Below, piece by piece: positions 1 through 59,668 of a stretch of 64,000 bases of DNA (position 1 is its first letter; each line of letters begins with the position of its first letter). A program made the position numbers and the translations under genes. The notes under the pieces are model-generated. The model worked only from the letters and a program-made list of their open reading frames with translations. It did no database searches and was not told the origin of the DNA. The stretch is taken from the NCBI GenBank assembly GCA_964648565.1, contig CAZYLG010000001.1, forward strand, positions 12,315-76,314, in the 5' to 3' direction. The DNA comes from an uncultured Thermoplasmatales archaeon (lineage in GTDB: Archaea > Thermoplasmatota > E2 > DHVEG-1).

Positions 1-46
1 AAAAAAATATTTAATTAAACAAAAGATAATCGTAGAGAGAATAAAA

Positions 47-10825: not shown

Positions 10826-13102
10826 TTATAATTCTTCGAAATATAAAATTAACCCATGTGTTTTATTTTCTATTACTTCGATACCAGACCATTCATCTTG
10901 AGCTAATACTAAAATTTCATTATATTTTGCATTAATTTGAAATTCTACGTTATCAGCTTCAATCGATGCCAATTCTGAATCAGTAATAACGTCTAGAGCA
11001 TTTTGCCGGTATGCATAATAATCTCTTCCTAGATATGTGATTTCAACTAATCGCACTCCAGGATATGACATCATATACGAACTCAATTCTGTTTTAGAAA
11101 TTGATTGCCCAAATGTTTGTTTATTAATGTTATACTGATTTCTTGTATAATTATAAATATTCTCTTTTACAGTGTTCTTCATATTCTTAAATGTATATAC
11201 TGTAGCTACAACATCATATACTCCATATCGAGCGTCTTTAATATGATTATCAACACACAACATTTTTTGATTCTTAATATATTCTAAATACATATTTTCT
11301 TCAGAAGTATTATTCGGATCCCATCCATCAGCATAGTATGTAATGACAGTTTCATCATTTGTAATATTCGAAGTAGATGTAAGAATAATTTTATTAAATT
11401 CCCAATTAATTGTATAATCACTACCTTTTGTATATTTAGTTTGCCCTGTTTTATCATATATTTCAATTGGAAAATTTGGGTATAAACTGTTTAATGAAGT
11501 GTCTAATGTAATCGCATAATCATCAACTGATGAATCATATGCGAATGTGTGAACAACATTTTGTTTATGTTCTTCCCATGTATCATCAAATACATATAAT
11601 ACCCGTAATATTGTTGGTTCTGTTTCAGATGCTGGTGATGGAATTGTACCACCATCAACTGATTGTATTCTTGAAAATGTAGATTCAGATTCATTAATTG
11701 TATAATCTGTATCTTGTATATATGAATCCATGGCTAACCAATCTGTACTTCCAGTATCATAATGAACAACATACATAGTATTACTTTTATTCATTCTATA
11801 TTTTTTTAAATAAATAGTTTGTTTAGATGGATATAATTCTATATCTTCATAATCAACAACATAATGCGGATTATATGTTTTTGATAATCTAAACAAATCA
11901 TTAAATTCTACCGGACTAGTTTCTTCATACCCTTCTCTTAACGGACAAATATAAATCCATGTATCAAGAGGCGGTAAAAAATAACCATATTCTTGAAATA
12001 TAGCTTCTGGCTCATTGTCTTTACTTACAATTGTAGCATGTAATATTGTTGGATTATTTTCTAATTTTATAATATAATCTTCATTTGTAACTGTTTTATT
12101 CGCAGTTCGAAGTTCAAGAGGTGAACGAAATTTTGCAGTTTCTAAATCTTCAGTATCAGATCCTCCTGCTGCTGATTTAGTATTAGTGAATACTAATGTA
12201 ATCCGCTCACCAGCGAGAGTATATGTTTTAGTACTGTTAATTGTATTTGCTGGAATATTCGTATTTGTACCACCACCAACTCTATATGTTACTTGTAATC
12301 GTTCTCCTTTTTTTGGAATTTCAACTAAATTTTCATGTCCATATACGATATCAACAGAATTATCATTATTAACTTCAACACGATATGGTATTGTTTTTAA
12401 TGATTCATCAACTTCATTCTGTTGGGCTTCAGGAGAAATAAATGAATCTACTTCAAGGTGTTCTTTTCCAGTAGTTAATGATGTTATTCGTATAGAACTA
12501 TCAATAATTGGATTCTGTGTAAGAGTAAACCGTTCATTATTAATACCATCTGACCATATATCATCTTCAGTGACTGTTACACCCTGATAAAACGGAACAC
12601 CACTAATATTATAAATTTTATTTGTTTCATCACCACTCTCCACATGATAAACAAAACTATAATTTGGTTTACCGTCATCTGCCATTTCTATACACTCAAA
12701 TGTTGTTATAATACCATTTTTATCAGGTACATCTAGAGTTTCTAATGGATTGAGATTAAAAGGCGGAGTCCATTTTGCTAATTTTAAATTAACACTAACT
12801 CTCGCAGCTGATGGTAGTGGTGGTTTATAATTGATTAGTTTTAATATATTAATTACACTTTCTCTTTTAGTAGCTGTGGAAATAAACATTTCTCTAGCAT
12901 ACCAATCAGTTTTTGCGGCTACTTTTTCTGCGATGTAAGCACTTAACTCCAACAACATCCTTCCAGCATTCGTTTCAAGAAAATCATTCCAATTTTCTAA
13001 ATATTCTGGGTGTTCGGTAATTGAATTTTCTACATCTGTTATAATTGTATTAAAATCTAGTTCTGTATAACTAAATTTAGGTAGCTTTACTAAATTATCC
13101 AT
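10826..13102 (-). CDS. baseplate wedge protein, T4 gp6 / Baseplate_J-like, 758 aa
   Basis: The N-terminal region (NWNDFLETNAGRMLLELSAYIAEK...FISTATKRESV...YKPPLPSAA) follows the pattern of the T4 gp6 N-terminus (W..EFLD..GSRLNVLCDLLAY...ESF..A..R.SV..GY.P.S..A). It lies in the same orientation as the gp25 homologue, separated from it only by the 533-aa endonuclease-like gene. Confidence 0.65.
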   Translation of the reverse strand: MDNLVKLPKFSYTELDFNTIITDVENSITEHPEYLENWNDFLETNAGRMLLELSAYIAEKVAAKTDWYAREMFISTATKRESVINILKLINYKPPLPSAARVSVNLKLAKWTPPFNLNPLETLDVPDKNGIITTFECIEMADDGKPNYSFVYHVESGDETNKIYNISGVPFYQGVTVTEDDIWSDGINNERFTLTQNPIIDSSIRITSLTTGKEHLEVDSFISPEAQQNEVDESLKTIPYRVEVNNDNSVDIVYGHENLVEIPKKGERLQVTYRVGGGTNTNIPANTINSTKTYTLAGERITLVFTNTKSAAGGSDTEDLETAKFRSPLELRTANKTVTNEDYIIKLENNPTILHATIVSKDNEPEAIFQEYGYFLPPLDTWIYICPLREGYEETSPVEFNDLFRLSKTYNPHYVVDYEDIELYPSKQTIYLKKYRMNKSNTMYVVHYDTGSTDWLAMDSYIQDTDYTINESESTFSRIQSVDGGTIPSPASETEPTILRVLYVFDDTWEEHKQNVVHTFAYDSSVDDYAITLDTSLNSLYPNFPIEIYDKTGQTKYTKGSDYTINWEFNKIILTSTSNITNDETVITYYADGWDPNNTSEENMYLEYIKNQKMLCVDNHIKDARYGVYDVVATVYTFKNMKNTVKENIYNYTRNQYNINKQTFGQSISKTELSSYMMSYPGVRLVEITYLGRDYYAYRQNALDVITDSELASIEADNVEFQINAKYNEILVLAQDEWSGIEVIENKTHGLILYFEEL

Positions 13103-14696
13103 TATTGTTTTCCTTTATAAATTTTATATTACCACAATCATATATTCTATACCATCCAACTTCATCCATCATTTGTTTCTCAGTTTTTTCATCAGAATAA
13201 TTATCAAAATTTTTAAGTCTTTGTTTTCTAAAATTATATCTATGGTAAAGTTTCTTTCCATTCCAATAAAAATAGTTTGGGGGTGTATGAGAATCCAATT
13301 CAAAACCCAACTGTTTGTATAAATTACCTTGACTCCACCTTCTATCAGCATAACTATAAATTTCGTTCCATTCCCAATTACGTTCAAAATGTTTAAGCAT
13401 TTTAGAAGCCAAACCTGGGGTATATGTATCTGCGGTAGTAGCAAATCTGCTCAATTCCCATACTTCATTTTTTTTCTTTTGGTTCATAAAAATTCTAGGC
13501 TTAGAGAAAGTCATAACGCCAATAAGTTTATTATCATAGAAAGCCCCTAATTTTATTCTACTTTTATCTTCTCCTTGTATGTGATATTTATTAAGAAAAC
13601 CATTTTTTATTTTTGAATCAATTTCTTTGACTATAGTTTGTCTTGCTCCAATTCTCTGAGAATTGAGACCTAAAATATTCTTTAATCTATTTTTTACAAT
13701 ATGAAACTTATCATTTATTTCATTTTCAAAAATATGAATAAGTTTTATACCTTTGTTATTACATTCCTCTGTTTTTTCTAAATGATAGTTTTTATCTTTA
13801 TATATATCAGAGTGCCAATAAAGACCATCTATTTCTATAGCTAAATTATGATCTGGAAGATAAATGTCTAATTCTTTAGGTGAAATTATTTTTCTATCAT
13901 TTTCTTTAAAAATAACACTATTTTCATTTAAAAATTCTTTAATTAATTTTTCTGTTTTAAACTTTTCACTTTTATTACAATTAGAACAAAATAATCTTTT
14001 ACCTCTTTCTAAATTTGAATAAAATACTTTCTTACATTTTTCACATTTCCATTTATATTCTTTTTTTATATTTAAATATTCATTTTCATCAAATAGAGGT
14101 ATAATATGTAAACCTAATAAATTATTGTAATAATTTGTTTTTTTAATCTTTACATTATTAGATACAACTTTTTTTTGATTCCATGGAGATTTCATTCCAT
14201 ATTTTTTTAAATTAGTTTCTTGTCTTTTAATAGTGGTTTCTTTTAATTTTGATATGTTATTTACTCCATATTTTTTAATCATACCACTTTCTCTTTTATT
14301 TTTATCTCTAAGAATATAATCAACTCCGTATTTTTTTAAATTTGTAGCTTTCGTTTTATTTTTTACATCTTTTCTTTGAGCAATATTTTCGACACCATAC
14401 TTTTGCAAATTTATTTTCTTCATTTTATCTTGAAATTCTGGATCACTTGTTTGACACCTAGCTGAGCAATATTTTCTATATCCTCTTGTAAAACCTACAA
14501 ATGAAACTTTTTTACCACAAACACATTTAGGTTTTTCTGTAATATTATTTAAAAAACAATACAAATTTTCACTTCTATTATTTGATATAAACAATTTATA
14601 ATTTTCTTCAAAAAAATCATTTGCCCTTCTAATAGTACCATTATTAGGACTATCAGTTAAAATATTTTTTAATTCAGCTTTAATTTCACTTATCAT
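13095..14696 (-). CDS. multi-domain endonuclease-like protein, 533 aa. Two zinc-ribbon motifs, an array of four (N/I)LKKYGV repeats, a Vsr/DUF559-like PD-(D/E)XK nuclease core (AIEIDGLYWHS) and a C-terminal domain of unknown function. Likely a free-standing homing endonuclease.
   Basis: Zinc ribbons CVCGKK..YCSARC and CEKCKK..FCSNCN. The KYG(V/M) motif repeats four times about 22 aa apart. IEIDG..H resembles the DUF559/Vsr endonuclease motif. The SD is weak. The gene is inserted between the gp25 and gp6 homologues. Confidence 0.55.
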   Translation of the reverse strand: MISEIKAELKNILTDSPNNGTIRRANDFFEENYKLFISNNRSENLYCFLNNITEKPKCVCGKKVSFVGFTRGYRKYCSARCQTSDPEFQDKMKKINLQKYGVENIAQRKDVKNKTKATNLKKYGVDYILRDKNKRESGMIKKYGVNNISKLKETTIKRQETNLKKYGMKSPWNQKKVVSNNVKIKKTNYYNNLLGLHIIPLFDENEYLNIKKEYKWKCEKCKKVFYSNLERGKRLFCSNCNKSEKFKTEKLIKEFLNENSVIFKENDRKIISPKELDIYLPDHNLAIEIDGLYWHSDIYKDKNYHLEKTEECNNKGIKLIHIFENEINDKFHIVKNRLKNILGLNSQRIGARQTIVKEIDSKIKNGFLNKYHIQGEDKSRIKLGAFYDNKLIGVMTFSKPRIFMNQKKKNEVWELSRFATTADTYTPGLASKMLKHFERNWEWNEIYSYADRRWSQGNLYKQLGFELDSHTPPNYFYWNGKKLYHRYNFRKQRLKNFDNYSDEKTEKQMMDEVGWYRIYDCGNIKFIKENNNG

Positions 14697-15129: not shown

Positions 15130-15218
15130 GTGTTCACCAGCTGAACTCAATTTTTGGCTGTTCGTGTGCTGAACCCCACTGTTCGCCAGCTGAACCCTGC
15201 TGTTCGTCTGGTGGAACC
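15130..15218. repeat. array of four GC-rich palindromic repeats (consensus CTGTTCG-N5-CTGAACC, i.e. GTTC-N7-GAAC around a central CAGCTG), phased 21 bp apart in a divergent intergenic region
   Basis: R1 15130..15146 gtgttcaccagctgaac. R2 15158..15175 ctgttcgtgtgctgaacc. R3 15179..15196 ctgttcgccagctgaacc. R4 15200..15218 ctgttcgtctggtggaacc, which has an N8 spacer. GTTC starts fall at 15132, 15160, 15181 and 15202. This is a conspicuous GC island in AT-rich DNA. Confidence 0.8.
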
Positions 15219-15275
15219 TATATAGATATAATATATAGATATATAATAAAAATATACTACTACAGGCGGTGGATG

Positions 15276-15290
15276 TAAGATAATATAAAC
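15276..15290 (+). promoter_or_regulatory. conserved motif TAAGATAATATAAAC, promoter-like and T4-late-like, 8 nt upstream of the SD of the YegP-like gene
   Basis: One of three exact copies of TAAGATAATATAAA in the window. Confidence 0.5.
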
Positions 15291-16906: not shown

Positions 16907-16946
16907 AAATAAAAATTAAATTTTATAAAGAAAAATAATCTCTTAT

Positions 16947-16961
16947 TTAAGATAATATAAA
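16947..16961 (+). promoter_or_regulatory. conserved motif TAAGATAATATAAAT (contains TATAAAT), 5 nt upstream of an AAGAGG SD
   Basis: Second exact copy of the 14-mer. Confidence 0.5.
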
Positions 16962-16981
16962 TTAAGTAAGAGGTATTTTTT

Positions 16982-17410
16982 TTGAAATTTAACGAAACAC
17001 TCTCAGAATCGTTTAAAAAATATAACCTACGCTACAAAGGCACACAACCAGATTATAAAATACATGATAAAAATCCTTTTGTGCTTGCTATAGATGATAA
17101 ATACAATCCAGATGACCAAGGTAAATCAATTCTTGGTATTAATCTTAATTATTATACTGGTAATAAAAATAAATTGATTAAAAAGATAAATAAAAATGAT
17201 AATGAAGCTGGATTTAGAGGATTTGAAGGTAAATTAAAGGTTCGTAAATTTATTAATAAAGACATCGAAGAATATGAGGAAACACAGAGAAAAAAACGAT
17301 ACGATAATTTTATTAAAACTTTTCCTCATTTAGAAAAATATATACGACGATATAAATATGATGGTCCTAAAGGAACTGGTATTAAATCTAAGAAAAGAAA
17401 GATATTATGA
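16982..17410 (+). CDS. hypothetical protein, 142 aa, probable TTG start
   Basis: The first in-frame start codon after AAGAGG (16967..16972) is TTG at 16982. The product is lysine-rich. Confidence 0.45.
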   Translation: MKFNETLSESFKKYNLRYKGTQPDYKIHDKNPFVLAIDDKYNPDDQGKSILGINLNYYTGNKNKLIKKINKNDNEAGFRGFEGKLKVRKFINKDIEEYEETQRKKRYDNFIKTFPHLEKYIRRYKYDGPKGTGIKSKKRKIL

Positions 17411-27000: not shown

Positions 27001-28853
27001 CAGATACAAATAATCGTTTTTCAGCTACAAATGTAGAAAATGCATTGCAAGAATTGGCTGGAGTGGATAGAGATGCTACCCATACGGTAAAGGGTAATTA
27101 TGATCTTATTCAAACTAATATCACTACCCTCACAGATTTACAAGAAGATGTACAGTACGCTCTTGATGCGAATACTGGTTCTTGGACTCAAGTGAAAGCA
27201 ACAAATAATGGTTGGAATATCGCAGATCTACGAACCGATGTAACAACAAATGCTGGAGATATAACCACTAATGCGGGAGATATCGCTCAAGAAATTATTG
27301 ATAGAGCTAACGCAGATCAACAGATTAGAGATGATTTGATTTCTACTGATAATGGTAAAGGAGCTTCATTAATCGGAGTAGAAGATTCAAACGGTGTGTT
27401 AACTGAAATTAATCTCGAAGCTGCTTTATATGAAATAATTGGATCAGGAAGAACAAATCAAACAATTAAAGATAATTGGGATCTTATTCAAACCAATATA
27501 AGTGATATTACAGATATTCAAAATGATGTTTCGAATATTAATACCGATTTATTAGAAATCGGTAAAATGAAAGACGGTACTGATGGATCTACTTGGGATT
27601 CATCAATGAATCTTAAGGATCATGAGGATCGATTAGATACCGCCGAAACAAATATTAGTACAAATGCTTCGGATATCGATACGAATGAAACAGATATCGC
27701 GAATACTCTTTCTTATGCTCAAGGGGTAAGAACAGACCTAACAACTGAAATTAGTAATAGACAGCAGGGCGATCAAGATATACGAAATGATTTAGCATCT
27801 ACTTCTGCTACGAAAGGTGCTTCAATGGTTGGAGTGAAAGATGAAAATGGATATTTTACCGAGAATACAGTAGAGGAAGTGTTATCTGAATTAGATGAAA
27901 AAATACAAACATTAGAAACAAGTCTTAACTGGAAAGAACCTGTTGATACTGTCGGTGACTTACCGACAACTGGTAATGATGATGGGGATGCTCGAACTGT
28001 ATTAGATGATGGTGATGGATTTGCAGCTCAATATGTATGGAATGGAACCTCATGGGTTAAAATTGCAGATATTAATTGGGGAACTGCATCGGATATTTCA
28101 TATACTAATACGACAACAGGAATGGATGCTACAAATGTACAATCTGCTATTGATGAAGTATATGAACGTTCACAAGATCCTTCTAAAGCAGAAGATGAAG
28201 TTGAAACTACTGATTATTCATCTAGTGGTGGTCGGTATTTTTATGATATTGATCATGAATTAAATACTCAAGACGTAACAGTTATACCGATTAGTAAAAC
28301 CGATGGTAGAGTTGTAGGAGTTGATGAAATAGAAGCTGTTGATTTTAACACAACACGAGTATGGGTAACTGATAACTCCGAGGGATTAAATTTTATAGTA
28401 TTCGGGGCTGTTCATAATTATTCAAAAACTGTAGGATCGTGGACACCTTCTAGTGGCACATATTATCATACAGTTAATCATAATCTTAATTCTCAACAAT
28501 TATTATTATCGGTATTCGACTTAAGTACTGGACATAGAGTAAATCTTGATGAAATACTATTTACTGATGATAATACGATTACACTTTGGACATCAGACAA
28601 CTTATTACAAGTCAATGTCTTTGTATTAAAACGAACATCAGATACAAAAGTAAAAGATATCGATAATTGGAATCCGGTGGCTGGCATGTATGAGGCATCC
28701 ATTAAAATGCCAGAAGATTATGATGCTGTTTATCAATTTATTGATCCTTCTACTGGAAGAATTGTTGGAGTTGATGATGTATGGTTTGATGGTGATTATC
28801 TTAAAGTACGAAGTTCAGATGATTCTCGTTTACGAATGGTTATCTTAAGATAA
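18006..28853 (+). CDS. giant mosaic tail-fibre/spike protein, 3615 aa. It has CBM-like (NPSFE...) jelly-roll domains, two DUF1565-type right-handed beta-helix segments, a coiled-coil/heptad region with a threefold GAS(L/M/T)(I/V)GV repeat, one WKEPV..DLP..GD.R.VL repeat, and three C-terminal ~60-aa repeats.
   Basis: GAGGAAACAGAG then ATG. CBM-like domains sit near nt 19500, 21400 and 25550. Beta-helix starts AFKTIGRAVEAI (~22760) and YPFKSFFAAKSQ (~25270). The heptad region spans ~26620..27920. The C-terminal repeats span ~28230..28850. Confidence 0.85.
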   Translation: MSITKKWSTGPLGNEYPDHSERGNPNTRGLTDNGIPGVEGYVEEDRVVASEDNRPLKNLTQNDQILENNLVDVASEVDYGVLKDKYDEFDLEIQELDYHQDPESDNPDDVVEITPLRIKSGSSFIDGQVTRTGNQQIIYFLRDDESYLFPDYDEHQGEVVIELFDKDYFGEYRPVYNTLAEELPSNFTDYEIKITNTDSSGSLEDRTSYYKVYRDWEDIVPYPPEEESQSQVLDFEYDANYGQDSEGVWLNPENDVINIKVSDVEVKKNIQVLDKHLRHNDFKLNPSTGNYEQILITDGIFFDNIRWDTSGEVVDIQDLVVDKDDNIFFIYDPYKLNLGEIDTLLLYKLSAESEQIDNIEITNILPTEKPMRLKLIDGYLFVLGEGALIKFLDIYVSSTVNEFITPLTGDTTQTFKDVVIWDDTLWIASNNTLYYTSWEDFKTSPRHATFTTIDFASEIESQGHADTLDYIQNIFTLKGNYVVDSSLIHDIDNIIDNPSFEEGGINNPPTSWDVTSSSGSATLKVASGNAQIGQMRAVLQPAINDNEISVYQDKKFDFETSQDYTFSIYLKASTDTDVDIILSELDDSDAIVDSTTQSETVTGNDTWIRFSVTHTVTDSTSVKLRVEVKKTDVNVLQFDGGQLELGASVSQFVHGYNYLFITFRKKDDTTNPPFAIIDERKKYDIQYTPNLYGKIQSINDILDRNHNEIYFIDDSHIYSMQLLNDVDHYDRINISNLSSQLFGDDFRERVKQLYSIEELNSRIYIGGTILNKNISFTIDDGETHTVELLHANEVTGGGSYLDFLTIIGDYNFIQASENSPARVEFSRTEELYESQNPTPTEGFYSAEQIYAFGIRIDDIEYLIKVDSAPQEFNSPWSIEDVYNKIVTHTTSEGYDVFSWHFDNSTLIVDGLYSIGMNKPTRYLRGNIKKIFKQENAEEKDVNERHLYIARENTIIRSKYDPNIKKVGDSYPSEPVVRGYVDSMDDLPSDPDNNDVYYVEGWGYFKWIESTSEWIDTHYFHRWDISDSNYELREFTKIANETITFNDTTHNRLFVDIPVSSGCELLTGSVRLKINDETEYGFIEGKDYFINYENKTVIRNDGKNLLSDSKLEHIDDPSTQWNIWSTHDDPEFNSLTNEFNEIFAEFYTVNQITEYVNFHQVVVPNTLSVGETFTFSIYVKSNIEFTSGNIRLAERINSGTNKNDLSLFYDDFIDGSTQTFFISNSELDIGKWHRIEVTHTIQNTESDCLRVEFYSALNHQIFVKNAQLEENPFATPYVPEEGFSRIDPQDTVYCDFIEYKVLTEGSDYTFNTDDNRRICLLNPIGSNSELYFDYEYERIFNPYKYGNSLPTFDVRYDNRDDYFLYENSGRIWAINQILALLSLDESLNVSYKYHYPRIDKIKIRNIPDKYGNFLYIVKGDFDVENPYSPGDLGNQRQVYVDGVYDVSIDDVNNEDNDVLYELNVVDLNFNKNDIYDRRIFIDSDTSPYFSISLQNETLAYFPFVKDFISTNGIHPLNQIDASRIVSIVKNYSIQQNEEVGAWGTDYQMSLRYKDGYPENIGPSLSTFVDNDNGKDDDPAYDGTSQLLAFKTIGRAVEAIRDEGAQPNIVIISTSTITEDVEIDLTQEILIKAKTYTRWRGNLQNRSKITFQGIIFENFNFYAIADLDFYHCNLEDSSINNYYPLNISLYNCKILDATNTFLRISSQLFPTPFAHPYMRNITRDDGVPGSPESVATSDGEAIHPEDLQYNFELFGDPIGNYTMYRCLMNGLSDDLIHYDLTNTQDWISNFDVEKCTIVNSKLLFKTSKPGQSILFNECIVWNNGEIRSGEKKYFDSRSNIEFLNSFIDFSVDPELVPASELNFNPIGGIFGRETCQFSGPNKDPGFISTDEETEDYHLRSIAKGFLTDSVCIGKASDGKDIGCYDEIRERVDLDVPKKFKSNFAYIAESIHYPIVVNSEKITFTVEFKPTETYNNTGILFDTRSDTDDDDYIVLLYNNNTGEKRANLTPDSQAEPSDPYTFKIIVANKYKKYAVISPLQILSDADYQQWHKISFTVNYEKAFNQKPAFDEKDKYQNIITFYHNNQLAIESFIVNDLNRDEKGELILNELAQGNEIVEGFKEEETTNAWNYNDISYYITIGGAFDQTQLLSGYYSELRIDNKFTNRKELTYWNDKELPFIDPTNYIDQSTFVKTIDSRILNEFWSLKNEYGIGAKGNTFEDKTRKRFTYLNSELVWALMEPTMNYLENSDFTENEFAHIITDVPPRLNSNISKYMFISTTGSRIATDNAQSTINDDAYGISVRFFTDEDDYANGMNFYSAKELVDHINDEIFRTDGGTPVNGNTYIRCRLRKDGKIEFYTKDWQATSIKIQFENSGDHREIGFNNDNPDLIDWEYMGELQGDEANVYFIDTLRSDSYVPDGSPAYPFKSFFAAKSQLEVGYVLYIANGETNPGSTYADFGITTGGGGGTVLFTGRQITKTKDTNFEILGLDGDTVGRHEVWNEFDPLYTRLSNRSWGILKNRALGEDETITIYFEKITQTGGAPIDFVPGEYYTFSMYVYSEDEVSSEKIKFIKRENGTETEFFFDDIEKIYGSWMKLTKTTSFSSDLQADIGIIVKRDIEFYIDAVQLERSKFSTPYIKERNDNHGVIEISRALVQKQRGIIFFRFKPIINFDTEDEIVLLEAVKYQIDEAGDLVYKEGSDVPLVDWNRGFRISYYYDPTIEKGIITFKTDSLVINDTSTHKFYIVESLWDYWHSVAIYYDYPTNRFIYYFDHFKYDTESGAAVQPFASNFYIGRDVPKDYTSSGSFEWTDSIGYDETKNRPSANILVKDVIITNYPISDRELSNWKNIQEFYKESSYIHLLDYYQDQVLQRISNLELVSENTIEISNKIDSFEQQINQFEENLNNNVNTQLPQIESDIATNAANITTNADDIDVLELNVSNLTAEQSNQDGRITQNESDIDYNYNLILAETQARIDADDIIVNRLISNNIGDGASTVGIADTNNRFSATNVENALQELAGVDRDATHTVKGNYDLIQTNITTLTDLQEDVQYALDANTGSWTQVKATNNGWNIADLRTDVTTNAGDITTNAGDIAQEIIDRANADQQIRDDLISTDNGKGASLIGVEDSNGVLTEINLEAALYEIIGSGRTNQTIKDNWDLIQTNISDITDIQNDVSNINTDLLEIGKMKDGTDGSTWDSSMNLKDHEDRLDTAETNISTNASDIDTNETDIANTLSYAQGVRTDLTTEISNRQQGDQDIRNDLASTSATKGASMVGVKDENGYFTENTVEEVLSELDEKIQTLETSLNWKEPVDTVGDLPTTGNDDGDARTVLDDGDGFAAQYVWNGTSWVKIADINWGTASDISYTNTTTGMDATNVQSAIDEVYERSQDPSKAEDEVETTDYSSSGGRYFYDIDHELNTQDVTVIPISKTDGRVVGVDEIEAVDFNTTRVWVTDNSEGLNFIVFGAVHNYSKTVGSWTPSSGTYYHTVNHNLNSQQLLLSVFDLSTGHRVNLDEILFTDDNTITLWTSDNLLQVNVFVLKRTSDTKVKDIDNWNPVAGMYEASIKMPEDYDAVYQFIDPSTGRIVGVDDVWFDGDYLKVRSSDDSRLRMVILR

Positions 28854-29494: not shown

Positions 29495-29845
29495 ATGAAT
29501 TGGAAAGATAAATACGATGATGTAAGTGATTTTAAAGAAGGTAGAGCTAAAGTTGAACTAAATAATAAATATGGTCATGTAGATAAAAATGGTAATGTAA
29601 CTACCCCTATTATCTATGATATAACAGGATATTTTCAGGGAGGTAGGGCCGGTGTTGAGCTAAATGACAAACAAGGGCACGTTGATAAAAATGGTAATGT
29701 AACTACTCCTATTATTTATGATAGTGTAGGAAATTTTAGAAAAGGCGAAGCTTTGGTTAGATTAAATCGTAAAGAAGGTTATGTAAATAAAAATGGCAAA
29801 GTAATAGAAGGTCACTATGATTTAATTATAGGAGTTTTTAAATGA
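29495..29845 (+). CDS. KWG/WG-repeat protein, 3 repeats, 116 aa
   Basis: Repeats of GRAKVELNNKYGHVDKNGNVTTPIIYD.. match WG_beta_rep-like repeats with W replaced by Y. AGAGGAAG precedes the ATG. Confidence 0.7.
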   Translation: MNWKDKYDDVSDFKEGRAKVELNNKYGHVDKNGNVTTPIIYDITGYFQGGRAGVELNDKQGHVDKNGNVTTPIIYDSVGNFRKGEALVRLNRKEGYVNKNGKVIEGHYDLIIGVFK

Positions 29846-30396
29846 ATTGGAAAAATAAATATGATTATGTAAGTGATTTCCAAGAAGGTAGAGCTAAGGT
29901 TCGATTAAATGGTAAACAAGGTCATGTAGACAAAGAAGGTAACATTACTACTCCTATTATTTATAATAATGTAGGATATTTCCAAGAAGGTAGAGCTAAG
30001 GTTCGATTAAATGGTAAATACGGTCATGTTGATAAAGATGGTAACATTACTACTCCTGTTATTTATAATAATATAAGTCATTTCCAAGAAGGTAGAGCTG
30101 AAGTTGTAAAAAATGGTAAATACGGTCATGTAGACAAAAATGGTAATGTGACTACTCCTATTATTTATGATCTTATAGGAAATTTTCAAGGAGGTAGAGC
30201 TATAGTTGAATTAAATAATAAACAAGGTCATGTAGACAAAAACGGTAACATTACTACTCCTATTATTTATGATAATGTAGGATATTTCCAAGAAGGTAGA
30301 GCTAGAGTTGGATTAAATGGTAAATACGGTCATGTAGACAAAAATGGTAAAGTAATAGAAGGACAGTATGATTTAATTATAGGAGTTTTTAAATGA
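29842..30396 (+). CDS. KWG/WG-repeat protein, 5 repeats, 184 aa
   Basis: ATGA overlap with the upstream paralogue. The 39-aa repeats are near-identical at the DNA level. Confidence 0.7.
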   Translation: MNWKNKYDYVSDFQEGRAKVRLNGKQGHVDKEGNITTPIIYNNVGYFQEGRAKVRLNGKYGHVDKDGNITTPVIYNNISHFQEGRAEVVKNGKYGHVDKNGNVTTPIIYDLIGNFQGGRAIVELNNKQGHVDKNGNITTPIIYDNVGYFQEGRARVGLNGKYGHVDKNGKVIEGQYDLIIGVFK

Positions 30397-30641
30397 ATTG
30401 GAAAGATAAATATGATTATGTAAGTGATTTCCAAGAAGGTAGAGCTATAGTTGTAAAAAATGGTAAATATGGTCATGTAGACAAAAACGGTAATGTAACT
30501 ACTCCTATTATTTATGATCTTATAGATCATTTTAAAGAAGGTAGAGCTGAAGTTGGATTAGATGGTAAACAAGGACATGTAGACAAAAATGGTAAAGTAA
30601 TAGAAGGTCACTATGATTTAATTATAGGAGCGTTTAAATAA
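30393..30641 (+). CDS. KWG/WG-repeat protein, 2 repeats, 82 aa
   Basis: ATGA overlap. Same N-terminal cap (MNWKDKYDYVSDFQEGRA) and C-terminal cap (GKVIEGHYDLIIG.FK) as the other two. Confidence 0.7.
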   Translation: MNWKDKYDYVSDFQEGRAIVVKNGKYGHVDKNGNVTTPIIYDLIDHFKEGRAEVGLDGKQGHVDKNGKVIEGHYDLIIGAFK

Positions 30642-30708
30642 ATTATAAAAAACCCATAAAATAGTAAAGATAAATTAATAAGATGGACTGCACACAGTTC
30701 TTCTTAAT

Positions 30709-30762
30709 GGATTGTACTATATAGGTACAAAAACTATATATTGTACTTAATAGGTACAATCC
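30709..30762. promoter_or_regulatory. two operator-like palindromic sites TTGTAC-N7-GTACAA, nested in an outer inverted repeat GGATTGTAC...GTACAATCC, upstream of the TTG-start 1843-aa gene
   Basis: Site A 30709..30730 (ggattgtactatataggtacaa). Site B 30740..30762 (attgtacttaataggtacaatcc). Centres are about 29 bp apart and about 30 nt upstream of the start codon. Confidence 0.6.
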
Positions 30763-39828: not shown

Positions 39829-39860
39829 AAAAAGCTCCTCGAAAGAGGAGCTCTATATAT
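39826..39860. terminator. bidirectional intrinsic terminator: AGCTCCTC-GAAA-GAGGAGCT hairpin with an A7 tract upstream and a T-rich tract downstream
   Basis: Perfect 8-bp stem 39833..39840 / 39845..39852 with a GAAA loop. On the minus strand TTTTTTT follows the stem. It lies between the convergent 1162-aa gene and the lipoprotein gene. Confidence 0.8.
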
Positions 39861-39877: not shown

Positions 39878-40594
39878 TTATTGTTTAATAAATTCATGCA
39901 ATGTACTATTACCAAACTTTGTAGTATTATCGGAAACAACATCTGGATCCCAGTGAGTTTCGAATTCGAAATCATCACCTATATTTTCTTTTGTCCAAAT
40001 TTCAAATTCAGCATTTTCACCGCTTCCATTATCATTTTCTACTACTTTCCAATCAGCAAAGTTCATATCGACATCACCTAACCAATAGTTAACTCTTTGA
40101 AATCTAGCTGTACCATCAGAATTAAAAGTCCAGATATCAGTGGTAGTTTGACCACCTTCGTCGAATTCTCGTTCCCAGGTTCCATCAAGAACATCACCAT
40201 CAGATACATAAGAGTAATCATATACCTCTATAGTAACACTGTCAGTATAACCACCGTCATCAGTTTCGAATTCAATGGTTACATTCTTAACAGTATCAGT
40301 GACAGAATCATCGAATGAAATAGAATCTTCAGTTACATTAACACCCGAGGGGGCGGTGACAGTGACGTCAGTATTGTCTGCGTCATTCGGTTTAACTTTG
40401 ATTTCAATGCCTATGCTTTCATTGTCATAAGCAACCAATTTGTCTGCTACTACCGTGATGCTTTCAACATCAATGGTATCATCACCAGTATCTTCAGGCG
40501 GATCCATCGAAATATCACACCCAAACATAACAACCAACGCAACCAAAACCATCATTACAATCATCATTTTCTTCATAATCTCTAAATCCTCCAT
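39878..40594 (-). CDS. secreted lipoprotein-like acidic protein, 238 aa from the first ATG. The likely true start is the second Met at 40576, giving MKKMMIVMMVLVALVVMFGC...
   Basis: Signal peptide with KK, a hydrophobic core and Cys at position 20 (lipobox-like VMFGC). GGAGG lies 7 nt upstream of the second ATG. The mature part is rich in Asp, Thr and Glu. Its own terminator lies downstream. Confidence 0.6.
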   Translation of the reverse strand: MEDLEIMKKMMIVMMVLVALVVMFGCDISMDPPEDTGDDTIDVESITVVADKLVAYDNESIGIEIKVKPNDADNTDVTVTAPSGVNVTEDSISFDDSVTDTVKNVTIEFETDDGGYTDSVTIEVYDYSYVSDGDVLDGTWEREFDEGGQTTTDIWTFNSDGTARFQRVNYWLGDVDMNFADWKVVENDNGSGENAEFEIWTKENIGDDFEFETHWDPDVVSDNTTKFGNSTLHEFIKQ

Positions 40595-40804: not shown

Positions 40805-40901
40805 AATACTATTATACTATATATAAACTATCTGCTAAAATAATCTTAAAACATTTCAGAAAAACTACAAAGATAATTAAAAATATATACGGAGAGGAAA
40901 T

Positions 40902-43706: not shown

Positions 43707-46700
43707 ATGGCATCATTTAAATTATTATGGGAAAATAACCCAGACACTCCAATAGATTCTAATCGATTATCAAGTTCTATAGATTATTATTCCAAACAAT
43801 CTATTTTATACTTTGATAGTAATGAATTGGAAAGTGGAGAAGATATATTAAAATTACGAAGTAATGTAAAAGTAAATATAGAAATCCCTACTACATTATC
43901 TGCATGGGATTTTAATAATTCATTAGTTTCATATAATAGTAAATTTGCTCCAGAAGACGCAGAAAATATTATTTTTAGAGATGAATATAATAATTCTCCA
44001 GGGAGTGTTGCGATTGATGCAGCAATCGATAATGTTCTAACAAATTCAGGATTCGAGAGTGGTTTAACTGATTGGACATTTACTGATGATAATGGTTCTA
44101 TTGTTTCAGTATCCACGTCTGAATATTATCCGTCAAATCTAAGTACTCAATCTGCAGAAATAACTGTTAATTCAAGTGGAACACTTTGTGAATTATCTCG
44201 TCAATCCGATACAAGTACAGTAGTTGGAAACTATTCACTATCATTTTATTATAAAACAAGTACAGATTTATATTTACAAATTAAAACATTTAAAAATGGT
44301 AATGATAATTATTGGAATGGCAATAATTGGGTATTTTCCCAGGCATACTTTACGATGCCTTATACAGATAATCAATGGCATAGATATGAAATGCAAGAAA
44401 TCGATGTTAGTCTTATTAATTATGTAGAAATCATTTTGTATTCTGATTATCCTAATTCGACTCATTATGTTGATTCATTTCTTTTAGAATTAAAAGATTA
44501 TTGTTCATCATATTATCCAACATCTATTGGTGATTCTCTTCTCACGTACAGTAGAGATGTTATTATTCTTCGAGAAGGTTTGATTGATTTTACATTTTAT
44601 CCTAAAATAAAAGAGGATGTAACATTATTTCTAGTAAAAAGCGTAAGCGGCAACGATTTATTAAAACTTGTATTCGATGAAAGTGAAAATAAATTTGTTT
44701 TTACGATTTATGATAAAAACACATCACAAGAATTGACGTATGATATAATTTTTAATTTTGATAATATTATTGATGAATGGACAAGAGTAATAATTAGTTG
44801 GAGTGAAACACTAAAAAAAGTATACGTAAATATCGGAACATATTTACGAGAATTTGATTTACCTACTGGGTATTTTGCTGAAGATCAAAGCAATATTAGT
44901 AAAGTATATATAGGAAGTGATTCTGACGGTACTCATCTTGCTAAATCATTATTTGAATTCCTGAAATTTGACATAGAATATAAAAATTTAGATGAAATTA
45001 ATAATTTACTTCTTTATCCTTCTGAAATTAATGATAGTGATTTTAAAGTATTCGAAAATGAAAATAAATCATTAATTATTAACCATCATTTATTAGATAC
45101 TGGCACAAATTTTGCTAATAATAGAACATATTATATTTGGGTTGCAGACAATAATGACGGTGATAGTTGTGAGCTGTTGGTGTCATTGAGCGATCATAAT
45201 CCTTCTGGATATATTTGGTATCGATCACGGATTATCGGTGGATTTAGAACTGATTCAAGTAGAAATATTATAAAAAATAGTGTATGGGATATTAGTACTA
45301 AATTAACTACTAATTTACATATTGACAGATTATTAATTGGAGGAACCCGAACCCTGACAATTGATGATGTTGGAGCTGGTGAAGATCCTACTCCAGTAGA
45401 AATTAGTACTACCCCGTATGGTGATGTAAATAATGCTATTTATAATATTGACTCCTATTTCACGCGACATGTATACGGAAGAAATATTACAGATGGAAAT
45501 TTTTTAGATATTGATAATGAAAATGGATCTATAACAATAGATGATATTCATATAGATGGTCATATAATGAATTCAAATGATACAGATTTTGAGCTGTATG
45601 CTTCTGGTTCGAATACTCTTTCTTTACATTCAGATGAAATTATAATAACATCTGAGGGAACAGACGTAAAAATTGATGATATACGAATATTGAATAATAC
45701 GATATATGTGGCAAATGGGAATGATTTAATTATTAATTCAAATATTGATGATGCAACAAGTGATAATAATATTCAGGTGATTGCAAATGATGTGATAGTA
45801 GAACCTAAAAACGATTTTGTTGTCGATGCTGATAATCAGATACAATTAACTGCAGAAAATTCTATATTGATAACATCAAATACGAATAATATAGTTACGT
45901 CTTCAAACAATTTTACCGTATCGACTGATAATATTATTACTTTAGACGATATAAAAATTGATGCTAATAAAATTTATCGTGACGGAACATTAGAAGTAAT
46001 TAATATAGAATCAACTGGTAACATTAATATTAATTCATTAGACGAGAATGTAACAATAGAAGAAATCGATTTTAATGATAATAAAATTTTTCAAACAAAT
46101 GATGTTCATCGTTATATATCATTTTATGATGATGGAAGTCCTGTGGGGTTTTCAGATTCTGCAGAAAATATTGATATCGCAGCTGGTAATAAAGTAGTTA
46201 TTGATTCTCCTGTATTCCATGTTAAATCACAGGAAGTGTGGTTTGAGGCTGATTTATCTGATTTCATACGATTAGATTATATAAAAATTAATGGAAGTCA
46301 GTTGTATACTGAAACTGGATACCCTTTGAGTATATTATCACCAGAGAATATAACAATAAATTCTGGTTCTACACTGTCACTTCAAGGACCGCCTGTACAG
46401 ATTGAAAATATAACATTAACCGATAAAACACTTGAACCATTAGACGGGGCATGGACATTAGGGAATATTATACATCAAACAAATATTAAAGGTAATGGGT
46501 TTGATGTATATAGTGAAACTGGATACGTAGATTTTAGTTCAGATATACGGGTAAGTAGTGGTAGTGGTTCTATTTTAGCGAATGCTTCATCTGCTACAGA
46601 ATTTGAAACTGCTGTAGATTTAGATTTTGCTTCTACTGATACTACTCAAATGGATACATATAATCAAGTATATACATTAACAGGAACCGAAGGTACAATT

Positions 46701-47540
46701 GATGTTGATGTGACACATACTCATGATGGTCGTTATTATACTGAAACAGAGGCAGATAATAGATTCGTAAATATGAATGGTGATACGATGACTGATGATT
46801 TAAATTTTACTATTACAGCTTCTGCGACATCAAAAGGGATAACATGGACCGGATTAACTGACGAGCATAAAATTTATGTCGAGGAGACTGCGGGAGGTGA
46901 AGAAACATCATTAATTATAGAAAGTGGAAATAACGCAGGTACTGATAAAACTATTTTTAGAAATAGAGACGGAGTAGCTCCTATTGATGTATTAACATTA
47001 AACAATAATTTAGTTCATTCTCATAAAGATGTTCAAATTGGTGATTCTGGAACATTAGAATATAACCAGTCAAACCCAGTTGGAACAGAGATATTAGGGT
47101 ATAATGGTTATTTTTATGCAAACAGGGTATATAATGCTGTATGGCAAGATTTAGCCGAATGTTGGGAAAAGAATCCTCAATATACATTTGGATATAATAT
47201 TGTTGTAGTACAAACTGAACATGGAGTAAGACCATCAATGAAACGCGCAGAGAAAACAACAGTAGGAGTAATTTCTGATACATATGGTTATATTTTGAAT
47301 GCAGATAAACTTTTTGAACATGATTTAAATAAATCAGAATCTGTTCCTGTAGCGATTGCTGGTAGAGCGATTGTAGCTTATGTAGGAGATATAGCGATTG
47401 GAGATGAGGTCGTATCATATAAAAATGGTAATTCAATTAAAGCGAATATATTTGAAAAAATATGTAAGCGAGATAGGATCCTTGGAAAGGTTGATAAAAT
47501 CTTGTCTTCAAATCTGATTAAAATAAAAGTTTATGGATAA
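43707..47540 (+). CDS. tail-fibre protein, 1277 aa. It shares the N-terminal module LLWENNPDTP..SSS and has a CBM-like jelly-roll domain and a distinct C-terminal domain.
   Basis: The CBM-like domain NVLTNSGFESGLTDWTF...YVDSFLLEL sits at ~44030..44500. RIIGGFRTDSSRNIIKNSVWDIS is conserved. HTHDGRYYTETEADNRF lies near 46720. Confidence 0.8.
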   Translation: MASFKLLWENNPDTPIDSNRLSSSIDYYSKQSILYFDSNELESGEDILKLRSNVKVNIEIPTTLSAWDFNNSLVSYNSKFAPEDAENIIFRDEYNNSPGSVAIDAAIDNVLTNSGFESGLTDWTFTDDNGSIVSVSTSEYYPSNLSTQSAEITVNSSGTLCELSRQSDTSTVVGNYSLSFYYKTSTDLYLQIKTFKNGNDNYWNGNNWVFSQAYFTMPYTDNQWHRYEMQEIDVSLINYVEIILYSDYPNSTHYVDSFLLELKDYCSSYYPTSIGDSLLTYSRDVIILREGLIDFTFYPKIKEDVTLFLVKSVSGNDLLKLVFDESENKFVFTIYDKNTSQELTYDIIFNFDNIIDEWTRVIISWSETLKKVYVNIGTYLREFDLPTGYFAEDQSNISKVYIGSDSDGTHLAKSLFEFLKFDIEYKNLDEINNLLLYPSEINDSDFKVFENENKSLIINHHLLDTGTNFANNRTYYIWVADNNDGDSCELLVSLSDHNPSGYIWYRSRIIGGFRTDSSRNIIKNSVWDISTKLTTNLHIDRLLIGGTRTLTIDDVGAGEDPTPVEISTTPYGDVNNAIYNIDSYFTRHVYGRNITDGNFLDIDNENGSITIDDIHIDGHIMNSNDTDFELYASGSNTLSLHSDEIIITSEGTDVKIDDIRILNNTIYVANGNDLIINSNIDDATSDNNIQVIANDVIVEPKNDFVVDADNQIQLTAENSILITSNTNNIVTSSNNFTVSTDNIITLDDIKIDANKIYRDGTLEVINIESTGNININSLDENVTIEEIDFNDNKIFQTNDVHRYISFYDDGSPVGFSDSAENIDIAAGNKVVIDSPVFHVKSQEVWFEADLSDFIRLDYIKINGSQLYTETGYPLSILSPENITINSGSTLSLQGPPVQIENITLTDKTLEPLDGAWTLGNIIHQTNIKGNGFDVYSETGYVDFSSDIRVSSGSGSILANASSATEFETAVDLDFASTDTTQMDTYNQVYTLTGTEGTIDVDVTHTHDGRYYTETEADNRFVNMNGDTMTDDLNFTITASATSKGITWTGLTDEHKIYVEETAGGEETSLIIESGNNAGTDKTIFRNRDGVAPIDVLTLNNNLVHSHKDVQIGDSGTLEYNQSNPVGTEILGYNGYFYANRVYNAVWQDLAECWEKNPQYTFGYNIVVVQTEHGVRPSMKRAEKTTVGVISDTYGYILNADKLFEHDLNKSESVPVAIAGRAIVAYVGDIAIGDEVVSYKNGNSIKANIFEKICKRDRILGKVDKILSSNLIKIKVYG

Positions 47541-49223: not shown

Positions 49224-49238
49224 TAAGATAATATAAAT
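49224..49238 (+). promoter_or_regulatory. third exact copy of TAAGATAATATAAAT (contains TATAAATA), abutting the ATG of the 1692-aa gene
   Basis: No SD lies between the motif and ATG 49239. Confidence 0.45.
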
Positions 49239-52200
49239 ATGATTGAAAATATTGTTATTTCTAAAATCGGTTCAGAAACATCAGACCCAGACAGAAAAAC
49301 GTACTCATCTACTCATTCTTGGGAACAAAATGGATCCAATCTTATCGTATATGTTAATAATTCGATTAAAGTAAAAGATGAAGATTATATCGTTGTTGAT
49401 GAATTTACTATTGAATTTTCTAATTCTGTTCATACATCAGATAAAATACAATTTGTTATTACTTCTGTTACTGATCCTTCAGAGTTTTTCACGTATGAAG
49501 ATCGAATCCACCAATTAGATAGGGTGGAGAAGAAACAGGAAAATAAAGTTCAAACAACAATTAATAAACGTCCAGAAGAAGAAATTTTTAATACATATCA
49601 AATTATATCTACAGAACAAATATGGGCTACCGAAGTAGCTGATACTCCTCTTCAAGCTCAACAAGATGGAGTAGCTAGATTGCGAGATAAATTTGAATTG
49701 ACAGAAGACGTCACAGTATCGGATCATAAAGGATGGTTTGCTTCTTCTACCGGATCACTAGATGGTAGAATAACAGATTGGATTCCTCCAAGTTTTGGAC
49801 AGGGATTTACTGTTCGTTTATTTGATGATGATGATACAGAAATACCGTCGTCTGATGTGATTAAATGGAAATGGGATTACGCGGCTGGATACCTTACTAT
49901 TCAAAACTCAGATCACGATTATCAACTACCTTTTCATATTTATGGATATGAATATATAGGTAAATTTGCGTCTGATAGACTTGTAACTTGGAAAGAACCT
50001 GTATTTAGTGAAGATTTTTTACCGTTATATCATAATGAAGATGGTGATATCCGGTTGGTATTAACTGAAAATCGATTTATGCGTTTCGATTCTATAGCAA
50101 ATATGTGGAGAAATTTAAATTATGGCTCTGATATTTTACGAGATCCAGTAGTTGCTGTCGGTGATTTACCGACAGAAAATAATCAGAGAGGTGATTTACG
50201 ATTAGTATTAGAAGATAGTGATTTATATTTATGGGATGATACTATTGGTGAAAGTGGAGATTGGATAATTTTAACAGGGCAATCTTTTTCTCCAGAAAAC
50301 TATTATAAACGTGATGTTTTAGACGGATTTTTAGATGACAAATCAGACATTGGACACGTTCATGATAGTTTATATTATAGAAAACCTGAAGTCGATGATT
50401 TAGTCCGATGGAGACCCTCTCGACTTTCATTTAATGATTTACCTCCGTATACAGAGAATATAGACGGTGATGTTATTCTAACTCGTGATACAAATACCAT
50501 TTATCGCTGGGTAACTGAAAACCCCAATACTGGTCAGGGGCATTGGGAACCTATAGTTCAATCTAATTTTACATGGAAAGGTCCAGTTGATCAATTGAAT
50601 GATTTACCTCCAATAGGAAATAATCCTGGTGATGTTCGTTTGGTAAGAGATGAAGAAATAGCCTATTGGTGGGACGGAACTGAATGGAAAGAATTAAAAT
50701 CAACTATTCAAGAACATGATCATGATGATGTATATATATTAAAAACAAATTTTTATTGGAAACCACCTGTTACATCTTTTGGAGATTTACCATCAGTTGA
50801 TAATAATGATGGTGATGTACGACTTACATTAGATGATAATTTAATTTATCGTTGGGATTCCTACAACTATAAATGGACGTTAATCTCATATCGTTCATCG
50901 TGGCGCTCACCAGTAGAAACATTAACGGAATTACCAAGTGATAATGATGATAATGATGTTATTTTTGTTAAAGAAACTTCTCAAGTATATTATTGGGATG
51001 AAGATGAATCTATATGGAATTCTATTGAACTAAAGGATCATAATCACGATGATGTATATTACACGCAATCAGAGATAAATGACTTATTTGATACAAGTTC
51101 TGGTCATGATCATGATGGAGTAAATTCTCGTCAGATCAATTATAATGATTTATTAAATATACCTTATTTCTATTGGAAAAATCCAGTAGTATATGATACT
51201 GATCTGCCTGCTTCTGGGAATACACCAGGAGATGCAAGAATTGTATTAAACAACAAATCAATTCATGTTTGGACCGGTACTGAGTGGTTTCTTATTGTAT
51301 CTGGTGAATTTGTTTTAGAACATGATCATGATAGTAGATACTATACAGAAACTGAAATGGATACAATCATTAATAATACAATTACCTCATTAACTGCTCA
51401 AATTGCTACAAAAGCAAATGTTATCCATGATCATGATGATATATATTATCGAAAAGATTTTATTAATACTCATATTAATGATTTTGAACAACATGAACAT
51501 GATGGTATTGATTCTAAAAGAATAAATTTTCATGATTTAGAAAATATTCCAGATTTTAGTATTAATCATGATCATGATCATCGATATTATACACAAACAG
51601 AACTTCAAACTCCCGGACAGTCATCAGTACATTTCGAAAATATTACTAATATGCCTGCTTTTACTAGTAATTGGAAAAGTCCTGTTCAAGAATATAGTGA
51701 TCTTCCAATGACTGGTAATGAAGAAGGTGATTTACGTATTGTATTGGATACAAGAGAGATTTATGAATGGGATGGTAGTGGATGGAATTACGTAGGTGTA
51801 TGGGATGTGTCTACTACATCGAACTGGAAAGATCCTGTTAACACAACTGGAGATTTACCTTTAGTTGATAATATTAATGGTGATGTACGATTAGTATTAT
51901 CAACAAATACATTTTATCGATGGAACGCTGTTCAAGAAGAATGGATAATTATTCAAGCTGCAGGAGGTGGTGGATCAGAAAACTTTTTAGAAGAAAGCAC
52001 GATTCTTGTATTCAAAAATGGAATAAATTTACAAAAAGATGAAGAGTGGGAAATATCGGGCACATCATCGATAAATTTATTAATTGATACAGAAGATCAA
52101 GACAAAATCGCTATTATTGTTTATCATAGTAATAGTAATTTTTATCGAAGATATGACTTCACATCATTCGCGTTACAGCAGTCATTTGAGATTGGAACAG

Positions 52201-59645: not shown

Positions 59646-59668
59646 TTACTCCTTTATTATAAATATGC

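Follow-up and report, generated by a model that had tools for sequence, protein, structure and literature searches.

The middle and late transcripts of the Thermus phage phiYS40 are, as Sevostyanova et al. reportedly described in 2007, largely leaderless, and the sigma-28 (SigD) promoters follow the consensus TAAA-N15-GCCGATAA. In Deinococcus-Thermus, leaderless expression involves a TANNNT -10 element situated a few bp before the ORF, with no Shine-Dalgarno (SD) sequence and with a specific spacing (PMC12340547). The T4 genes e, soc, 49 and I-TevI have late promoters placed such that the 5′ arm of a hairpin is excluded from promoter-initiated RNA, and the ribosome site is thereby freed (PMC3014915). 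The late promoters of phiKZ end in TATG, the G being the start, and those of AR9 take the form AACA-N6-T(A/G) and give leaders of 26-491 nt (PMC5312081). Here we describe a repeated 14-mer, TAAGATAATATAAA, from a 64-kb stretch of phage DNA (hereafter the window). We think it likely, judging from sequence, that it is this phage's version of a family-wide promoter with the core AAGATAA, which often lies so near the ATG that late mRNAs would be leaderless.

The window has a GC content of ~31% and contains giant ORFs of 3055, 3615, 1843, 1692, 1277 and 1162 aa, together with the T4-type baseplate genes gp25 and gp6; strong SD sequences are a feature of the window. A megablast search with 32 kb of the window found no nucleotide match in INPHARED, and a tblastn search of the same database with gp6 returned only matches of ~25% identity. 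The gp6-like protein has 55 metagenome homologues (24-100% identity, mostly 41-63%), which sit on contigs of up to 388, 481 and 732 kb. Therefore, the window belongs to an uncultivated huge-phage lineage without a close cultured relative. We retrieved ~20 related loci (denoted L with a number), whose gp6-like protein is 33-63% identical. The related contigs derive from SRR15425353, SRR21542054, SRR21412986 and ERZ23499083 and from the JGI metagenomes of IMGVR_UViG_3300033146_004399 and of the 388-kb contig Ga0209310_1000023. A 533-aa Hef-like protein was also tried as a marker and was rejected, being the product of a multi-copy mobile gene. This homing-endonuclease-like gene (13095-14696, minus strand; phrog_3339, E 1e-127) lies between gp25 and gp6 and is a mobile-gene insertion, since gp25 and gp6 are directly adjacent in L012, L014 and L015; it occurs in multiple copies across many jumbo phages, at up to 14 places per record. 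Elsewhere in the window, the 1277-aa protein (43707-47540, plus strand) matches the second domain of Mtd (PF21916, E 3.6e-8), a fold which is that of the Bordetella phage tropism determinant. A role in receptor binding is hinted at by this fold, and the protein may be targeted by diversity-generating retroelements. Moreover, a tandem duplication is suggested by two adjacent small genes (29842-30396 and 30393-30641), whose 45-nt upstream regions are nearly identical and whose first codons (ATGAAT) agree. No known RNA families were found in the window with Rfam.

The 14-mer is present in exactly three copies in the window, all on the plus strand (Table 1), against a chance expectation of 0.01; none of 100 shuffles contained three or more. 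The flanking sequences of the three copies are unlike each other and thus they are not fragments of a longer repeat. Every copy is intergenic, sense-oriented and 5′ of a plus-strand gene. The repetition of the 14-mer is a solid observation, and the first-pass annotation of this DNA had already recognised the three copies before gene starts, albeit with the second at 16947 rather than 16948. That annotation had also listed three degenerate variants. Those ahead of gp25 (P4) and of the 657-aa fibre-like gene (P5) stand; the third, at 40821-40831, has no AAGATAA and was rejected as a copy, being the -10 region of a minus-strand sigma70-like promoter (TTAGCA-16-TATAAT).

Table 1. Motif copies in the window and the features that accompany them.
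Feature	Position	Strand	Details
P1, exact 14-mer	15276-15289	+	core AAGATAA at 15277-15283
SD downstream of P1	15300-15304	+	GGAGG, then ATG 15309 of the DUF1508 gene
P2, exact 14-mer	16948-16961	+	core at 16949-16955
SD downstream of P2	16970-16973	+	GAGG, then TTG 16982 of a 142-aa gene
Predicted hairpin enclosing P2	16916-16992	+	MFE -20.6 kcal/mol, z -6.1, 0/200 shuffles as stable
P3, exact 14-mer	49224-49237	+	core at 49225-49231; 7 nt (TATAAAT) to ATG 49239
1692-aa gene	49239-54317	+	predicted expression from a leaderless or 2-3-nt-leader mRNA
P4, variant AAGATAACTATAAA	15082-15095	-	core at 15095-15089; 23 nt 5′ of gp25 ATG 15065, SD AGGAGG between
P5, variant AAGATAATTAAAAA	40870-40883	+	25 nt 5′ of ATG 40902, SD GGAGAGG between
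Core, absent from the first-pass annotation	23-29	+	17 nt 5′ of ATG 47 (109-aa gene)
Core, candidate site, absent from the first-pass annotation	28847-28853	+	overlaps the stop codon of the 3615-aa gene
Core, candidate site, absent from the first-pass annotation	30667-30673	+	in a 151-nt gap before the 1843-aa gene (TTG 30793)

The gene behind P1 is the first of a plus-strand block running into the 3615-aa gene, and its DUF1508 orthologue in L012/L013 has AAGATAAT 30 nt 5′ of the ATG. P4 heads the baseplate operon of gp25, the Hef-like gene and gp6. The candidate core at 28847 is followed by GAGG and by ATG 28866 of a 27-codon ORF. It is one half of a perfect 14-nt palindrome, TTATCTTAAGATAA (28840-28853), which lies at the extreme end of the 3615-aa ORF and consists of the core and its reverse complement, so that AAGATAA is found there on both strands. 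The candidate core at 30667 is followed by a 13-codon mini-ORF (ATG 30683) and by two 19-bp palindromes of the form TTGTAC-N7-GTACAA (30712-30730 and 30741-30759), which lie between the core and the SD/TTG of the 1843-aa gene and are possibly an operator pair downstream of the promoter.

An unbiased k-mer scan covered the sense-oriented upstream intergenic DNA of the window and 15 related loci. AAGATAA was the enriched 7-mer with the highest count (36 observed against 2.2 expected, from 13 loci, Poisson p 4e-31), although many of these sites are orthologous and the counts are not fully independent. Only the overlapping TAAGATA exceeded its enrichment ratio, and that marginally; the other main signal consisted of SD words. 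The upstream enrichment amounts to 21-fold in the window alone and 15-fold in the relatives alone, compared with 4-fold in unrelated AT-rich phage loci. For the window, there are six copies in 1251 nt of sense-upstream DNA against 0.22 per kb of coding DNA (~21-fold, Poisson p 5e-7), which agrees with the earlier suggestion of a promoter-like motif before structural, late-type genes. Orientation is also biased, with 36 sense and 8 antisense copies in upstream DNA. Within coding DNA the heptamer is depleted relative to codon shuffles, both sense (80 against 115) and antisense (27 against 47). With its flanks included, as W-AAGATAA-W6, the motif reaches 1.58 copies per kb of upstream DNA against 0.049 per kb of coding sense DNA, a 32-fold difference in density. 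The bare heptamer is not enriched in the window as a whole (36 observed against 33 expected). Its approximately chance frequency inside the genes of the window indicates that functional sites need extra context, which we can describe only loosely: the flanks are A/T-rich, and a weak T...A signal precedes the core by 24 and 20 nt.

The core itself is effectively invariant. All 21 single-mismatch variants are enriched 0-3.7-fold, none of them clearly, against 15.9-fold for the exact core, and each of its positions therefore matters. A position matrix built from 37 sites shows A or T before the core and six A/T-rich bases after it. Moreover, there is a weak but significant excess of T 24 nt (27/37) and of A 20 nt (26/37) before the core, the statistic for which is inflated by orthology among the sites. 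With a transcription start 4-5 nt past the core, these positions would correspond to about -35 and -31, and the T...A signal may represent a degenerate contact of the -35 kind. A second box, ATAAAT, 13 nt 5′ of the core was considered and rejected: it is the stop-codon region (LYA-stop) of the upstream gene in L016, L018 and L020 and is not general.

The invariance of AAGATAA reverses the order of importance proposed in the first-pass annotation, where the TATAAAT box was the core and AAGATAA its extension; among the relatives it is the bases following AAGATAA that are merely A/T-rich. Under the corresponding model, a gp55-like sigma factor would read the T4-type late promoter TATAAAT(A), and AAGATAA would lend it additional specificity from upstream. 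In favour of such a model are TATAAA(T/C) after the core at four window sites, the T4-type baseplate genes of this genome and a geometry like that of T4, namely an 8-bp element ending ~5-6 nt before the inferred start and no canonical -35. However, none of the sites tabulated among the relatives has TATAAA directly after the core, it is absent too at window 23, 30667 and 40870, and at the gp25 site its register is shifted by 1 nt. Counting the motif and building a position matrix, as had been proposed, upheld the upstream enrichment of AAGATAA and not that of TATAAATA, which is found 14 times in the window against 20.9 expected and in a single sense-upstream copy. Likewise, TATAAAT is only 2.8-fold enriched upstream, in line with general AT-richness. 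At P3, a T4-type -10 element at 49232-49239 (TATAAATA) would place the start ~6 nt inside a conserved ORF. A gp55-like late sigma factor, which had also been suggested, did not emerge from the partial genome available: PHROGs and Pfam scans of most predicted window proteins gave no sigma-like or gp55-like match, and low-sensitivity phmmer searches of the ORFs in ~330 kb of family sequence with approximate gp55 and sigma70 queries gave nothing below E 0.5. A phage RNA polymerase was likewise not found in the window or in these ~330 kb. As the conserved core of the motif, tested against the TATAAATA consensus, departs from it, the motif is not a member of that T4 class, and we regard the T4-type model as highly improbable.

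We propose instead that AAGATAA would be recognised at the DNA level as a -10-type element, at roughly -12 to -5, functioning without a canonical -35 element, and that transcription would begin ~5-8 nt past it. The genes it would drive are those of virion structure, that is the gp25/gp6 baseplate operon, fibre-like genes and giant proteins, and we infer their late timing purely from gene function. A consensus scan found no sigma70-type -35/-10 pair at any motif copy, no copy has the canonical sigma70/sigma-A arrangement (TTGACA, 16-18 nt, TATAAT), and the 37-site matrix holds no TTGACA-like -35 element. These results bear on the possibility that the copies are ordinary host sigma-A promoters, in which GATAAT or TATAAA inside the 14-mer is the -10 hexamer and the conservation of AAGATAA is incidental. 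Both hexamers match TATAAT at 5/6 positions, the weak T...A signal sits at the expected -35 location, and the sequence suggests an SD-using, Firmicute-like host; hosts of this kind use strong -10 elements. Nevertheless, at no copy is the missing TTGACA-like element replaced by a TG extension, and the base after the core is T in only 20/37 sites, whereas the final T of a -10 hexamer as a rule hardly varies. A GATAAN hexamer with 4-5 nt spacers would furthermore put the start past the ATG, seven invariant positions are not seen in host-type promoters, and a distinct sigma70-like class, TTAGCA-16-TATAAT, serves other genes of the window. We therefore consider host sigma-A promoters very unlikely to explain the motif.

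This second promoter class is found on minus-strand genes, with identical hexamers at 40838-40811 (-) and 40639-40612 (-) and a third such site at 58136-58116 (-), TTTTAGCAG, before a tRNA nucleotidyltransferase gene. None of the three contains AAGATAA, and they look like host-type promoters of non-structural genes. A 238-aa gene (39878-40594, minus strand), oriented opposite to the surrounding structural genes, was considered as a source of a regulator and was rejected; its product has a signal peptide and a lipobox (VMFGC) and is thus lipoprotein-like. At the convergent junction after this gene there is a GC-rich hairpin (39831-39854) that looks like a bidirectional terminator. Upstream DNA holds a third motif, (A)AGCATA, in 8 copies where 1.1 would be expected (window 59646-59668 (-), L016, L020, L022 and L025). 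It too has a short spacing to the ATG, 9-13 nt without an SD, and a long one, 20-30 nt with an SD; in L020 a divergent spacer carries it on each strand, and one of these copies is in tandem with AAGATAA. It may mark a further temporal class of promoters.

Measured from the end of the AAGATAA core to the start codon, the spacing is bimodal: it is 4-7 nt at 17 sites and 14-31 nt at 22, and the interval of 8-13 nt is empty (uniform model, p 3e-4 and 1e-6). An SD-like sequence lies in between at most of the 22 long-spacing sites, and no short-spacing site has an SD. The base before the ATG in the short class is T in 15/17 cases, compared with 39% in other genes (p 4e-5), in keeping with the preference of transcription start sites for a pyrimidine at -1 and a purine at +1. 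All 17 short-class starts are ATG, but the spacing scan sought ATG alone and this gives no independent support. A bimodal spacing is what the proposed promoter predicts, because an RNA starting ~5-8 nt past the core either begins with AUG or must extend far enough to hold a ribosome site. In the first of the two resulting layouts a short leader that includes an ordinary SD would come after the core; in the second, with the core 4-7 nt from the ATG, the mRNA would start at the AUG or no more than 2-3 nt before it and would be translated leaderless. Within the window, the copies at 15276, 16948, 15095(-), 40870 and 23 are leadered and that at 49224 is ATG-close. The latter arrangement, a -10-type element a few nt before the start and no SD, recurs at 16 further sites in the relatives, making 17. 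In terms of TANNNT, the bases WAAGAT fit xANNNT, the first base being T in the three exact window copies and A at many other sites.

The ATG-close copy of the window precedes the 1692-aa gene. There is no SD in the 35-nt gap before its ATG, and the N-terminus MIENI(I/V)I is common to a 42%-identical homologue, P0001, which supports ATG 49239 as the true start. The 7-nt spacer here, compared with 4-5 nt at most short-class sites, would place the 5′ end of the RNA at the AUG or 2-3 nt ahead of it. The mRNA would thus be leaderless or near-leaderless, and how efficiently it would be translated in the host is uncertain. That the motif abuts this ATG had earlier been read as a sign of unusual initiation, and the absence of an SD, the conserved start and the leaderless-type layout all fit that reading. 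The orthologue in L009 (L009 2203) has no AAGATAA, and the motif is therefore not obligatory for this gene. In L009 the last bases of the upstream gene overlap the ATG (ACAAATGATTGA), which suggests translational coupling of the orthologue rather than a promoter of its own; an SD is missing from both versions of the gene.

A spacing of 4-7 nt also resembles that from SD to AUG, and the motif could in principle act in the transcript, with AAGAUAA as a non-SD site for the ribosome or a factor 4-7 nt before the AUG, or as the cleavage site of a leader-trimming phage endoribonuclease. Several short-spacing sites (window 49224 and gp25 of L016, L018 and L020) are only 20-50 nt past a co-directional gene and could be operon-internal, and at three sites the motif falls within a hairpin loop. 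An RNA-level signal would, however, have no obvious role at the 22 sites that are 14-31 nt upstream, where a normal SD usually lies between. Moreover, a transcription start would account for both the lack of sites at 8-13 nt and the preference for T(-1)A(+1), and most SD-less genes are not preceded by AAGATAA.

The orthologous sites in the relatives bear on the same question. The core is kept before gp25 in nine relatives (L012, L014, L016, L018, L020, L022, L024, L026 and L030), and in L015 it lies before a 271-aa gene that precedes gp25. Among gp25 orthologues with alignable N-termini, those of the window and L014 are leadered and those of L012, L016, L018, L020, L022, L024 and L026 are ATG-adjacent. 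The same promoter on leadered and leaderless orthologues would constitute a natural experiment on switching between modes of translation initiation. In L024, the sequence AAGATAA-ACAT-ATG, which leads into gp25, begins 22 nt past an intrinsic terminator. In L013, a divergent spacer of 62 nt contains two cores back to back, one 5 nt from its ATG and the other 4 nt. The terminator in the one case and the divergent spacer in the other require a promoter in the motif region. Nothing else is conserved in those 25-40 nt. On the whole, we hold an RNA-level role to be unlikely.

Hairpins are predicted around three copies. In that enclosing P2, on which the ViennaRNA fold agrees, the 5′ arm lies upstream of the motif, GATAATATAAA is the loop, and the SD falls within the 3′ arm, with a T run after it. 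In L026, a predicted hairpin around the motif (z -5.9) has an upstream arm that pairs with the SD, as at window 16948; in L016, the 3′ arm of such a hairpin (z -6.6) does not cover the SD. Thus a hairpin of the T4 gene e type, with the 5′ arm upstream of the start and the 3′ arm on the SD, is predicted at window 16916-16992 and in L026. If AAGATAA is a promoter as we propose, the hairpin at 16948 would terminate read-through RNA from upstream or mask its SD. RNA started at P2 would be without the 5′ arm, and only this promoter-initiated RNA would be translatable.

The spacer between the divergent gp25 and DUF1508 promoters contains a further array, at 15130-15220, of four tandem 21-nt units (start-to-start 28, 21 and 21 nt), each a palindrome of the TGTTC-N-GAAC type. 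In L012-L015 this spacer is likewise occupied by palindromes, of the form TGTTCAC...GTGAACA, and no upstream 6-mer is more enriched in the family than GTGAAC. The array has the look of an operator or enhancer through which a DNA-binding protein would regulate both divergent AAGATAA promoters.

Lastly, we consider what might read the motif and what it would mean. Literature searches found no published description of AAGATAA as a phage promoter. A search of IMG/VR for the RNA polymerase beta′ motif NADFDGD gave mostly giant viruses, with no contig of the family among the matches listed. It is conceivable, though rather unlikely, that a dedicated and so far unrecognised sigma factor or RNA polymerase reads AAGATAA and that a large share of late mRNAs is deliberately leaderless, possibly with a phage-induced change in host translation in favour of leaderless initiation; the hosts otherwise appear to rely on SD sequences. 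If such a factor were found, it would represent a new specificity among the few known phage late-transcription systems. Taken together, the data partly support the overall reading of the first-pass annotation, in that a late-type promoter with a leaderless case appears right and the core element had been misidentified. AAGATAA would provide a concrete regulatory code for a huge-phage lineage without a cultured member, whose related contigs reach 388-732 kb. It would mark the starts of transcription units and could be used to correct gene-start calls, since ATGs 4-7 nt past the core are probably true starts despite having no SD. It would also predict membership of the late gene class.

Of the systems that resemble this one, the sigma-28 (SigD) promoters likewise have a -10 element ending in GATAA, with an A/T-rich element upstream. 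They differ in that AAG stands in place of CCG and the upstream T...A signal is ~4 nt farther than TAAA-N15 would place it, and we take the likeness as a lead only. The promoters of the phiKZ and AR9 multisubunit RNA polymerases are alike in having a short conserved motif at a fixed distance to the start and no canonical -35. However, the sequence of the motif is different, AR9 is not leaderless, and no RNA polymerase beta/beta′ genes are known for the present phage family. The TANNNT elements of Deinococcus-Thermus are closer in layout, with a -10-type element adjoining the start codon, no SD and a specific spacing. Here the element is a fixed heptamer rather than a loose TANNNT and belongs to a phage-specific gene class; it serves leadered genes too, and other genes of these phages have strong SD sequences (155/231).

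The late promoters of T4 likewise have a short, near-invariant A/T-rich element at about -10 without a canonical -35, are placed before virion-structure genes and in some copies lie in hairpins that, by the predicted folds here, would free the ribosome site in promoter-initiated RNA. In contrast, AAGATAA matches TATAAATA at only ~4/8 positions and is accompanied by a weak upstream T...A signal, and the gp55 sigma factor, gp33 and the gp45 clamp that T4 late promoters use were not identified in the partial genome. Moreover, ~40% of AAGATAA sites abut the ATG, a feature that we do not know from T4 late genes. The AAGATAA promoter would resemble in its working both the late promoters of T4 and the leaderless mode in which a -10 element stands next to the ORF.
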